DNA of 5,608 nt, taken from a virus (taxonomy: Duplodnaviria; Heunggongvirae; Uroviricota; Caudoviricetes). Shown piece after piece: positions 1 to 5,608 of this stretch. Position 1 is the first letter of the stretch. Every line of letters starts with the position of its first letter. The stretch is taken from IMG/VR virus record IMGVR_UViG_2695420613_000010, one strand, 5' to 3'. The translations under genes were made by a program, and so were the position numbers. The notes beneath the pieces were generated by a model. It worked only from the letters and a program-made list of their open reading frames with translations, was not told where the DNA came from and did no database searches.

Positions 1-107
1 CGCTTAAAAACTCATTCTAAAACTCAAAAGAAAAGCGCCGATTTAGTATCAAATAAGTTGCGTATCGGCGTTTTTCAGCGGTATCAAATGAAATGCAAAT
101 CGGTATC

Positions 108-132
108 AAAAAAATCGCCGCGCTATACGCGG
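108..132 (-). terminator. Putative intrinsic terminator downstream of the small ORF that follows rusA
   Basis: On the minus strand, CCGCG (132-128), loop TATAG, CGCGG (122-118), then CGA and a T7 run (114-108). The TAG stop of the 123-278 ORF sits in the loop. Terminators are expected in a nin region ahead of the late regulator. Stem is only 5 bp. Confidence 0.4.
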
Positions 133-278
133 TACCGGATTTTTTTTCGCCTGTAACGCCCTGTATCGAACATGGCATTCTCCTGCCAGGCTTCAAGCTG
201 ACCTTTTGTTGCCCCACTCAAATCGGCGGTAGCGATAATGAGCAGCTCACGCACAAACTGTAAATAGTGGTTATTCAT
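123..278 (-). CDS. Hypothetical 51-aa protein, translationally coupled to rusA (ATGA overlap)
   Basis: ATG at 278-276 overlaps the rusA TGA stop (277-275). Hand translation: MNNHYLQFVRELLIIATADLSGATKGQLEAWQENAMFDTGRYRRKKIRYRV, ending at TAG 125-123. Not in the supplied ORF track (below its length cutoff). Position matches the small gene found after rusA in DLP12-like prophages (ylcG position), but sequence similarity was not verified. Confidence 0.35.
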   Translation of the reverse strand: MNNHYLQFVRELLIIATADLSGATKGQLEAWQENAMFDTGRYRRKKIRYRV

Positions 279-634
279 GCGCACTCCAGTTCTGTGATTT
301 TTATCCCCAGCCGCTCACCAGGAACGAGCTGACCGCGCACAATATTGATTTCATCAAACTGCTCATCGTCCATTAGCAACCCCGCATGCGTCAGCGCATC
401 CAGCGGCGCTTTCAGAATATTGTCCAGGTCACGGCGGCGCTTATCCGGTGGCTCGGCAATAATCTTTATCGCCAGCCTTCCGGACAGGCTTAATTTCAGC
501 CGCTGCTGGCGAACAATAAGCGCCACAGCCCGGCGATAACGCTCACCGGCTTTTGATACAAAATATGTGCTGCCACGACGTCGCCAGTAGGTGTTCACCG
601 TCGGCGGGTAAGGTAAAACCAAATCTATGAGCAT
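275..634 (-). CDS. rusA: Crossover junction endodeoxyribonuclease RusA (Holliday junction resolvase)
   Basis: 119-aa ORF with the RusA-family signature: N-terminal LPYPPTVNTYW and the acidic motif DKRRRDLDN. ATG at 634 is preceded by GAGGTG at 5-7 nt. Size and position are typical for lambdoid nin-region rusA. Confidence 0.9.
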   Translation of the reverse strand: MLIDLVLPYPPTVNTYWRRRGSTYFVSKAGERYRRAVALIVRQQRLKLSLSGRLAIKIIAEPPDKRRRDLDNILKAPLDALTHAGLLMDDEQFDEINIVRGQLVPGERLGIKITELECA

Positions 635-646
635 CAGTCACCTCTT

Positions 647-1696
647 TTACCCGAGCACGCCAGTCGCAAAGGCGTGATCAAGAAAACGAAAAATTAACTC
701 AATCTGAGAGCCGTACTTTTTCTCAAACTCCAGCGGGTCTGCATGAAGTTCGTTGTGGTGCTCCCGGCACAACGGTAGCGTGAAAATATCGTGGGCCTTT
801 GTCCCCATTCCCCCCTGACCATGACCAATCAGGTGATGCGGATCGTCAGCAGGCTTACCACAACACGCACACGGCTGTGTCTTTACCCAGCGCGTGTATT
901 TCTCATTAACCCAGCGGCAACGTTTAGGCCGCCTCATGAACGATTCAGGAGACTCCGGATCAACGGCGATACTGACAACCGTTTTTTTCTGTGGTGGATT
1001 TTGTTGCTGGTGGACGTGAAGTGGCAGCGCAATATTTTTTGTGCGCTGCTTCAGTATGCTGATGGCTGTCTGTTCTCCCGGTACGATGTCACTCTCACGG
1101 TATACGGAGCGGATTTTTTCCGCTGGTAATCCCAGCGAACGACGCGCTACTGCCTCAGGTAGTGCATCCACCACCTGATTGCAGGCCGCCCACCAGGATA
1201 ATTCAGCCAGCGATAATTCACGCTCCTGTGTGCCATTCATTGCGTGACGAATGACGTCAATCATCCATGCTGACAGGTTTTGGTGAGCAAGTTGCTCAAG
1301 TGATTCGGAGGTCTGGTCACGCAACTGGTTGTCGCAGTGCCAGCACAACACCATTGCGCCGGTACCATAACGGTGAATGACGGTTTCACTGTGGTGATAA
1401 TCGCCGTGTGGCCACTGGCAGGATTTAACATGGCGCAGTAACCAGTCAGACAGTGCGCCAGCGCCACCAGCAGCACGAATCACTCGTTCGTCGCTGAAAA
1501 ATGGCAGTAATGATTTATCCTCCGCCAGCGGCTGGCGAACGGCAGGAACGACCCCGGACGGCAGATTACGCATGCTTTTCGGTTCCGGCTCCACCAGTAC
1601 CCGGGTATTGTGGAATACCGGCATGGATTCACGGCCCGGCTTAACGATCACCAGCCCGAGTTCCGGTACCAGAACAGGTCGAAGTAATACCCGCAC
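647..1696 (-). CDS. ydfU: DUF968-family prophage protein (YdfU-like) with a C-terminal HNH-like Cys/His motif
   Basis: 349-aa ORF starting at GTG 1696, preceded by GGAGGT inside the 3' end of the upstream gene. C-terminal CACCGK...DPHHLIGHG...LCREHHNELH resembles an HNH zinc-finger nuclease motif. Sits between rem-like and rusA, as ydfU does relative to rem/hokD in K-12 Qin (from memory). Start codon uncertain; M25 is an alternative. Confidence 0.75.
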   Translation of the reverse strand: MRVLLRPVLVPELGLVIVKPGRESMPVFHNTRVLVEPEPKSMRNLPSGVVPAVRQPLAEDKSLLPFFSDERVIRAAGGAGALSDWLLRHVKSCQWPHGDYHHSETVIHRYGTGAMVLCWHCDNQLRDQTSESLEQLAHQNLSAWMIDVIRHAMNGTQERELSLAELSWWAACNQVVDALPEAVARRSLGLPAEKIRSVYRESDIVPGEQTAISILKQRTKNIALPLHVHQQQNPPQKKTVVSIAVDPESPESFMRRPKRCRWVNEKYTRWVKTQPCACCGKPADDPHHLIGHGQGGMGTKAHDIFTLPLCREHHNELHADPLEFEKKYGSQIELIFRFLDHAFATGVLG

Positions 1697-2143: not shown

Positions 2144-2299
2144 TTACTCCTCAGGTTCGTAAGCTGTGAAGACAGCGACCTCCGTCTGGCCGGTTCGGAT
2201 TCGTACCTCGCAGAGGTCTTTCCTCGTTACCAGTGCCGTCACTATGACGGTTAAACAGATGACGATCAGGGCGATTAACATCGCCTTTTGCTGCTTCAT
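2144..2299 (-). CDS. hokD: Hok-family type I toxin (host-killing membrane peptide), HokD/RelF-like
   Basis: 51-aa product MKQQKAMLIALIVICLTVIVTALVTRKDLCEVRIRTGQTEVAVFTAYEPEE, which from memory matches HokD/RelF. Single N-terminal TM helix plus conserved C-terminal Cys, typical of Hok/Gef. AAGGAG lies 7 nt upstream of ATG 2299. The track ORF 2144-2356 is an in-frame upstream extension. Confidence 0.9.
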   Translation of the reverse strand: MKQQKAMLIALIVICLTVIVTALVTRKDLCEVRIRTGQTEVAVFTAYEPEE

Positions 2300-2542
2300 A
2301 ACCTGCTTCTCCTTGCCTTTCGGCGCGTAAGAGGCTAACCTACGTTTGTGAAGCATAGATTGGGCCTCAGATTAATGTTAAGCGTCTTGCAGGACGCGTA
2401 ATGTTAACTGGGGCTTTTCTCTGTCTGCCTTACGGTGGCATGCCCGAGGCAGACAGCCTCAAGCACCCGCAGCAATTCTACTTAACTCTCGCTTTACAGC
2501 AAACCGTTTTGCCCGATATGGGAATTCCCATACGGAATGAAT
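2300..2542 (-). promoter_or_regulatory. hok leader / regulatory region with direct repeats and palindromes
   Basis: Contains 9-bp direct repeats TAATGTTAA (2373-2381 and 2399-2407) flanking the inverted repeat GCGTC-TTGCAG-GACGC (2382-2397), a perfect 10-bp inverted repeat CTGTCTGCCT/AGGCAGACAG (2421-2430 / 2447-2456), and a perfect 16-bp palindrome TATGGGAATTCCCATA (2517-2532). No mok-like overlapping ORF and no clear Sok promoter/terminator could be identified by eye. Confidence 0.4.
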
Positions 2543-5271: not shown

Positions 5272-5608
5272 TCAGACAAAACCGGCCGCCTTCCGGCGCT
5301 CATATTCCTGTTTCAGCAATTCAATTGGCGTTGGCCCTGGCGGGCGTTTGGGTGCTGCCAGTTGTCGCCGGACTGGCGGAACACTGAGGCCATTACCAAC
5401 ATGCTTTGCCCATTTCGTCAGCTGCCTTTCCACAAGCCGTTTTAACTCCCCTTCGGTCATCTGGCGCTCAATCCCCTTTGAACGCATCTCGAGGCAAATG
5501 TGGTACAGCACCGGCTGTGGCCACGGGTATTTATCACTCCCGTCGTACCGCCAGGATTCATTCCTCCAGCGACGGTACTCCTCCATCACGGCATCCACCG
5601 TCAGGCCA
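5272..5608 (-). CDS. Hypothetical phage protein, 3' portion (5' end lies beyond the window)
   Basis: The open frame continues to the window edge with no upstream in-frame stop; the track start at 5598 is a GTG. The C-terminus is Pro/Arg-rich (...[32 protein letters not shown]). Product not recognised. Confidence 0.55.

Follow-up and report, generated by a model that had tools for sequence, protein, structure and literature searches.

A lambdoid Q gene interrupted by the right end of a Mu-like prophage of Sp18 type, with predicted transposase-binding sites

A truncated Q gene next to rusA

The window analysed here, 5,608 bp long, is the entire contig JXVN01000078.1 of draft assembly GCA_000948615.1, and its main features are listed in Table 1. 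The minus-strand genes are a lambda-P-like fragment, a hok/gef toxin gene, a gene for a DUF968 protein and then rusA, whose product is annotated as a RusA family protein in the genomes matching the locus. The Hok/Gef ORF lies upstream of the DUF968 gene (647-1696) and rusA. At its other end (5272-5608), the contig stops inside the lambda-P-like replication gene, which is also a repeated prophage gene.

Table 1. Coordinates of the features discussed in the text (window positions)
Feature	Position	Strand	Remark
Right end (attR side) of Sp18-type Mu-like prophage	1-127	+	non-coding tail, from mom stop to right terminus
Stem-loop	30-76	+	13-bp arms 30-42 and 64-76; 21-nt loop; flanked by A-run and T-run
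Predicted site R3	46-53	-	core at +75 to +82; oriented like R1 and R2; in the loop of the 30-76 hairpin
GTATCGGCG	62-70	+	part of the right arm (64-76) of the 30-76 hairpin; not a conserved site
Predicted site R2	81-88	-	core at +40 to +47; 22 bp from R1
Predicted site R1	103-110	-	core TTTGATAC at +18 to +25; full site probably ~22 bp
Conserved terminal 12 nt, 5'-TATAGCGCGGCG inward	116-127	-	presumed cleavage/strand-transfer end is base 127
Junction hairpin CCGCG-CTATA-CGCGG	118-132		left arm and loop from phage end (118-127), right arm from Q (128-132)
Truncated Q antiterminator	123-278	-	PF06323 and PV15-279 Q match; 51-aa ORF
CGCG, candidate copy of target-site duplication	128-131		from 4-bp duplications at 6 of 7 complete insertions
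rusA (Holliday junction resolvase)	275-634	-	PF05866; stop overlaps Q start
70-aa ORF with Hok/Gef toxin domain (PF01848)	2144-2356	-	as in Qin-type defective prophages

The initial annotation took the stretch to the left of rusA for a non-coding region downstream of that gene, in a lambdoid nin-Q intergenic layout with Q expected further left. Sequence comparison led to a different reading. When window 1-300 was searched against 5,426 complete E. coli genomes, 128-300 was the only matching part, being 100% identical to intact rusA-Q loci with the match ending at 128, and the matched stretch is annotated as the end of rusA and the start of 'bacteriophage antitermination protein Q'. The intact Q gene of O157:H7 PV15-279 (690 nt, 229 aa) begins in an overlap with the rusA stop and has tRNA genes downstream; the window tracks this gene exactly down to base 128 and then diverges. 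Q is therefore not further left: it begins at 278, directly off rusA in an ATGA overlap, reads leftward and is cut at 127/128. In intact relatives, Q coding sequence occupies the place of 1-127, so the supposed intergenic region consists of the first 50 Q residues (129-278) and of a different mobile element (1-127).

The 50 residues encoded by codons 1-50 of the Q remnant all equal the start of the 229-aa PV15-279 protein, after which a junction-spanning Val codon and a TAG contributed by the phage end close the frame. The ORF matches PF06323 (Phage_antiter_Q) with an E value of 9.5e-13, at profile positions 2-46 of 220 only; as judged by this profile, to which a full-length match failed, it is a gene fragment and not a functional member of the family. 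With 179 of 229 codons lost, we infer that the remnant is non-functional. The T8 run at 140-147 corresponds to Q codons 44-47 (R-K-K-I) and is also found in uninterrupted Q genes.

The junction 127/128 was found in none of the 5,426 complete E. coli genomes searched, an exact search gave no match to it in species-representative genomes, and no complete E. coli genome covered at least 80% of window 1-300. Three further ORFs, 17-217 (minus strand), 58-156 (plus strand) and 93-263 (plus strand), were rejected as genes, each of them spanning the junction. The first of these had been regarded initially as a probable artefact of the repeats; it is indeed an artefact, but its cause is that it spans a boundary of transposon and target present in no other genome searched. 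A perfect 9-nt inverted repeat, AAAAAAATC / GATTTTTTT (108-116 / 138-146), also flanks the junction, and is a coincidence of the insertion, pairing a stretch of the phage end with one of Q coding sequence.

Identity of the element left of the junction

A search of complete E. coli genomes with 1-127 found it at 285 places in 233 genomes, within varied genes, and in 210 complete E. coli records it is 100% identical. Among the loci hit by the element are dcuC, flgL, icmH, terB-like, DUF1367 and alcohol dehydrogenase genes as well as intergenic DNA. The presence of 1-127 at many non-lambdoid loci indicates that this region is not native lambdoid DNA.

A complete copy of the element, 38,756 bp in length, was found in O157:H7 FRIK2455, and window 1-127 is its terminus (record L006, 1038-1164). 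From the window-side end, this copy carries mom and com, then a gin-like recombinase gene, tail and head genes, Mor and Gam; its far end carries the genes of a MuB-like AAA+ protein and a 696-aa transposase, a ner-like gene and a gene at the repressor position. In window orientation, mom of this copy is on the plus strand and its stop codon precedes the equivalent of window base 1 by 2 nt, so that 1-127 forms the non-coding stretch from mom to the right terminus. At its left end, the FRIK2455 copy matches the annotated 'prophage Sp18, Mu-like phage' of Sakai with 100% identity. A 'tRNA-OTHER' is annotated within the FRIK2455 Sp18-type prophage (record 22043-22123), between virion and head morphogenesis genes.

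The Sp18-type transposase (WP_000289290.1) contains Mu-transpos_C and HTH_Tnp_Mu_1 domains, and the part of it that surrounds the second Asp and the Glu of the D-D-E motif can be aligned with retroviral integrase cores. The MuB-like protein of the element has Phage-MuB_C and AAA+ domains. By its domain content and the position of its gene beside the MuB-like one, the Sp18-type transposase is a member of the MuA family.

Among phage records, 27-127 is 93% identical to the 'region of the inserted Bacteriophage Mu-like phage' of two Stx-converting phages, and in both of them the match stops exactly at the annotated boundary, ...GCGCTATA. Two comparisons place the terminus, one with uninterrupted Q and one with seven further insertions whose flanks differ. 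Sp18 has been described as an apparently intact Mu-like phage (PMC2669165), and Sp18-like phages occupy sites that are specific to the strain (PMC7430833), with Stx phages and other mobile elements among their targets (PMC10132054). Sequence comparison establishes what 1-127 is, where the junction lies (127/128) and that Q is truncated, and the insertion in Q is a new insertion site of a known element, Sp18.

The Sp18-type element begins with 5'-TGTAACC at the left and ends with ...GCGCTATA-3' at the right, that is, with TA, in all eight insertions examined. Of seven complete insertions, six are flanked by 4-bp duplications (GATA, TGGA, TGCT, ATTA, CATC and AGAG) and one by a 5-bp duplication (CGTCT). 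A uniform 5-bp duplication was considered and rejected, since the flanks do not allow a one-base shift of either terminus, whereas 4 bp fits six of the seven. The CGCG next to the junction in the window is, by comparison with these insertions, probably one copy of the target duplication. The other junction, in window orientation, would read ...GTCACTTCATCGCG followed directly by TGTAACCAGGTGAATC..., with CGCG duplicated.

The element contributes exactly 127 bp to the contig, the same number as the highest default k-mer size in a common assembler. That the contig carries exactly 127 bases of a repeated element points to a break at the repeat boundary, and it probably broke where unique and repeated DNA meet, as in a k = 127 assembly graph.

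A lambdoid prophage without its own Q would presumably have a silent late operon unless another prophage provides a compatible Q, and its lysis and morphogenesis genes would not be switched on unaided. The disabling of a lambdoid prophage by a Mu-like phage has already been reported for Stx phages (PMC10132054). The locus also holds a lesson for annotation, in that an apparent regulatory intergenic region turned out to be the boundary of a mobile element.

Repeats and hairpins in the prophage end

The repeats noticed initially are real and non-random. The three copies of GTATCAAA (R3, R2 and R1 in Table 1), the related GTATCGGCG, the arms GCGCCGAT (35-42) and ATCGGCG (64-70), the CCGCG-CTATA-CGCGG hairpin sequence and the T8 run all occur where the initial annotation had placed them. 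The 8-mer GTATCAAA is found four times in the 5,608 bases, where 0.20 would be expected by chance; three of these copies are inside 1-135, and at least four copies were reached in none of 200 dinucleotide-preserving shuffles of the window. In a repeat search each copy could be extended to some 16 nt (GTATCAAA-N6-GC), the copies being spaced 35 and 22 apart.

From the terminus inward, on the minus strand, the end has the order TATAGCGCGGCGATTTT-TTTGATAC-CGATTTGCATTTCA-TTTGATAC-...-TTTGATAC, with TTTGATAC at +18, +40 and +75. At the left end of the complete element, the same core is present at +18, +113 and +165, inverted relative to the right end, so that the outermost copy is equidistant from both termini. 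The complete 38.7-kb element contains eight copies of TTTGATAC, compared to about 0.9 expected from composition. Six of these eight are in terminal positions, at most 172 bp from the termini and all facing inward (P ~1e-11 under uniform placement). The region is A/T-rich with homopolymer runs, from which such repeats might arise by chance as a product of low-complexity DNA; given the shuffles, the terminal clustering and the retention of the motif in phages of three genera, we regard the probability of this as negligible.

The motif was followed into related phages. Compared with the Sp18-type protein, the transposase is 79% identical in Yersinia phage YpM_5, 56% in both Tongde and Klebsiella phage Kp4866-3, and 47% in Pseudomonas phage VW-6B. 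In YpM_5, Tongde and Kp4866-3, the motif is again clustered at both ends, and the Yersinia and Klebsiella relatives have (T/A)TTGATAC at +18, +40 and +74/75 of the right end with diverged spacers. Four relatives keep the motif at +18, whereas the relative with 47% transposase identity has another core there. The right end of VW-6B (record L021, 80-206) shares the terminal 12 nt, T(G/A)TAGCGCGGCGA, beginning with the canonical TG, and has sites at the same positions, +18, +40 and +73, but with the core TT(C/T)TGGAC (TTCTGGAC) where the Sp18 type has TTTGATAC. The occurrence of another core at the same positions suggests that the site sequence changes with the protein. Only the right end of VW-6B was used, the start of the record being too near the repressor gene for the left end to be interpreted. 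The record ends of Haemophilus phage SuMu showed no recognisable terminal repeats and were excluded from the comparison.

In an ungapped alignment of six right ends, the 22-bp spacing of R1 and R2 is kept in all six, and R3 lies at +73 to +75 in all six while the flanking spacers have diverged. Within the terminal 12 nt, T1 and A4-G9 are invariant across the six phages. The copy-like GTATCGGCG was tried as a fourth site and rejected, as it is kept in no relative: the variant in LC727881 has GATAA instead of GATAC at this position, and nothing like GTATCGGCG was found at +58 to +66 in the Yersinia, Klebsiella and Pseudomonas relatives.

YpM_5 and Tongde are classified as Muvirus. Their left ends (YpM_5, record L009, 4733-4960; Tongde, record L011, ~36980-37180) have a Mu-like L1-L2 spacer, CCGGGAGGA...GGGAT.TGATGGGAT (cf. 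Mu 30-70), while their site cores and transposase are of Sp18 type. This combination makes the ends of the two phages look mosaic. Related ends with equal spacing and different cores form a series for studying changes of DNA specificity in the MuA family.

Since the position is kept at both termini and the motif is kept with a similar protein and replaced with a distant one, we infer that the three repeats are binding sites for a MuA-family transposase. We thus consider it highly likely that 1-127 is an Sp18-type right end and that its repeats correspond to the predicted transposase sites R1-R3. The initial annotation had proposed sites for a regulatory protein; protein binding remains part of the explanation, with the phage's own transposase as the predicted ligand in place of a lambdoid regulator. 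By analogy with Mu, monomers of the DDE transposase would occupy R1-R3 and the three matching left-end sites, and the bound protein would pair both ends in a transpososome. This complex would introduce nicks at the termini (in the window after ...GCGCTATA-3', base 127), and the nicked ends would be joined to staggered positions of the target DNA.

The transposase is assigned to the repeats from position, symmetry and conservation, and some other protein might bind them instead, for example the phage repressor, one involved in packaging or a nucleoid protein of the host; the packaging site of Mu also lies near one of its ends. However, symmetric inward-facing sites with the same +18 at both termini suit a transposase and not a one-ended packaging site, the core shifts as the transposase diverges, and the site positions coincide with the cores of the Mu transposase sites. 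We therefore consider binding by another factor quite unlikely. The transposase-site reading yields a testable map of the six end sites of an Sp18-type phage. In a non-exhaustive literature search, we found no earlier sequence-based map of these sites; queries with the motif strings returned only unrelated papers containing primers, and a 2026 small-RNA paper mentioning Sp18 contained nothing bearing on the right end.

The initial annotation had also suggested folding the RNA of both strands, and the two hairpins fared differently. The 30-76 stem-loop is strong on the plus strand (-21.6 kcal/mol, z = -5.06), its arms being 92% complementary over 13 nt in an inverted-repeat search. It has the end of mom just upstream and a T5 run downstream. 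In the variant with 93% identity, the hairpin persists (-22.8 kcal/mol, z = -5.13) although some of its stem bases differ. Its 21-nt loop is outside the usual terminator pattern, and a terminator pattern scan made no call here. The Yersinia and Klebsiella relatives are without this hairpin, and in YpM_5 R3 immediately follows the mom stop codon. A search of window 1-700 against Rfam gave no match up to E = 1. From its fold and place, the stem-loop could be the transcription terminator of mom, a proposal that we judge to have about an even chance of being right. Of the terminator cluster proposed initially, this one may thus be real, though it would serve mom on the plus strand and not a lambdoid operon on the minus strand.

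A direct role of the repeats in RNA, as 3' untranslated elements of mom acting in termination or stability and not as DNA sites, would fit the location directly 3' of mom and the strong stem-loop, which is kept in a diverged copy and has R3 in its loop. Against this, the left end has the motif three times, inverted, with no mom there; in the Yersinia and Klebsiella relatives the hairpin is missing although the three motifs remain at their spacing; the mom stop of YpM_5 abuts R3; and R1 and R2 are downstream of the putative terminator. A role in RNA is accordingly very improbable.

The 118-132 hairpin with the T8 run had been taken for terminator-like. Its fold is no better than that of shuffled sequences (z of -1.66 for the plus and -0.66 for the minus strand), its arms come from the phage end and from Q, and other insertions of the element have unrelated flanks beside the terminus. 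This hairpin is accidental, created by the insertion.

The original view of a nin-Q control region, with terminators or lambdoid regulator sites acting on minus-strand transcription, draws on a pattern scan that flags CCGCGTATAGCGCGG then CGATTTTTTT on the minus strand as terminator-like, and on the minus-strand fold of 25-85, which is somewhat better than shuffles (z -3.3). Yet only half of the flagged terminator belongs to the phage end, the rest being target DNA, and its fold is not significant. The start of Q at 278 leaves no intergenic region, the many non-lambdoid loci of 1-127 also stand against a lambdoid role, and the replacement of 1-127 by Q coding sequence in intact relatives already refutes it. 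We thus hold this view to be extremely unlikely, and retain the reading of 1-127 as a prophage end with predicted transposase sites.

Comparison with known phage ends

The element is the same as Sp18 of Sakai, both 1-127 and the left-end probe being 100% identical to that type. The two differ in location, the Sakai insertion being in sorM (PMC7430833) and the present one in a lambdoid Q gene. The Mu-like phages of clonal complex 119 E. coli (LC727881 and LC727895; PMC10132054) likewise place an Sp18-like phage inside a lambdoid prophage, and share the terminus ...GCGCTATA, the three GTATCAAA copies and the 30-76 hairpin. They differ from the window in being 93% identical over 27-127 and unrelated over 1-26, and in occupying other target positions within lambdoid phages. 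In these phages (records L001 and L002, 2800-2936), the gene closest to the right end does not resemble mom, and its product ends in ...AIGNSMPVPVMKWIGRRIQEALNEV, a tail which we take to resemble that of a cytosine-C5 DNA methyltransferase. A last gene other than mom would explain the mismatch over window 1-26.

The lambda nin terminators tR2-tR4 resemble the features studied here in lying near rusA and the nin genes and in being stem-loops with T-runs. In contrast to them, the stem-loops of the window are outside lambdoid DNA, one having been made by the insertion and the other belonging, on the opposite strand, to a Mu-like element.

The closest parallel in organisation is Mu, in which each end has three MuA sites with a different spacing at each end, and L1, R1 and R2 form the core while R3 is dispensable (PMC3145075). 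The CGAAA cores of Mu lie at +22 and +44 of the right end, with an inverted one at +57, and at +22, +127 and +167 of the left end; GATAC lies here at +21 and +43 of the right end and at +21, +116 and +168 of the left end. The element thus resembles Mu in having three sites per end at nearly equal core distances, with R1 and R2 22 bp apart, L1 set off from L2 and L3, and the two ends mutually inverted. A non-coding tail directly follows mom in both, 115 bp long in Mu and about 129 bp here, and both encode MuA-like and MuB-like proteins and insert at many different loci.

The differences from Mu are equally specific. The Sp18-type core is TTTGATAC, whereas that of Mu is (G/A)CGAAA, and no CGAAA-type core of the MuA consensus was found in the window end. 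R3 is direct at +75 here but inverted at about +57 in Mu, and MuA and the Sp18-type transposase share only 22% identity. The ends of Mu have TG...CA termini, whereas the Sp18-type right terminus is TA-3' in place of the canonical CA-3'. The target duplication of Mu is 5 bp, and that flanking six of seven Sp18-type insertions is 4 bp. On these comparisons, the region is the same kind of end as that of Mu, but it is not an end of Mu or D108.

Given the TA-3' terminus and the mostly 4-bp duplication, the analogy with Mu may fail in detail. It is possible, although we put it at somewhat less than an even chance, that the Sp18 clade of E. coli, Yersinia and Klebsiella has its own variant of Mu end recognition, in which the sites would be laid out as in Mu but with a TTTGATAC core read by the diverged transposase (22% identity to MuA), a TA-3' terminus and a mostly 4-bp duplication, of which a non-exhaustive literature search returned no description. 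If this is true, the clade would offer a natural variant of the Mu transpososome, in which the geometry of cleavage and target joining is unlike that of the textbook case.
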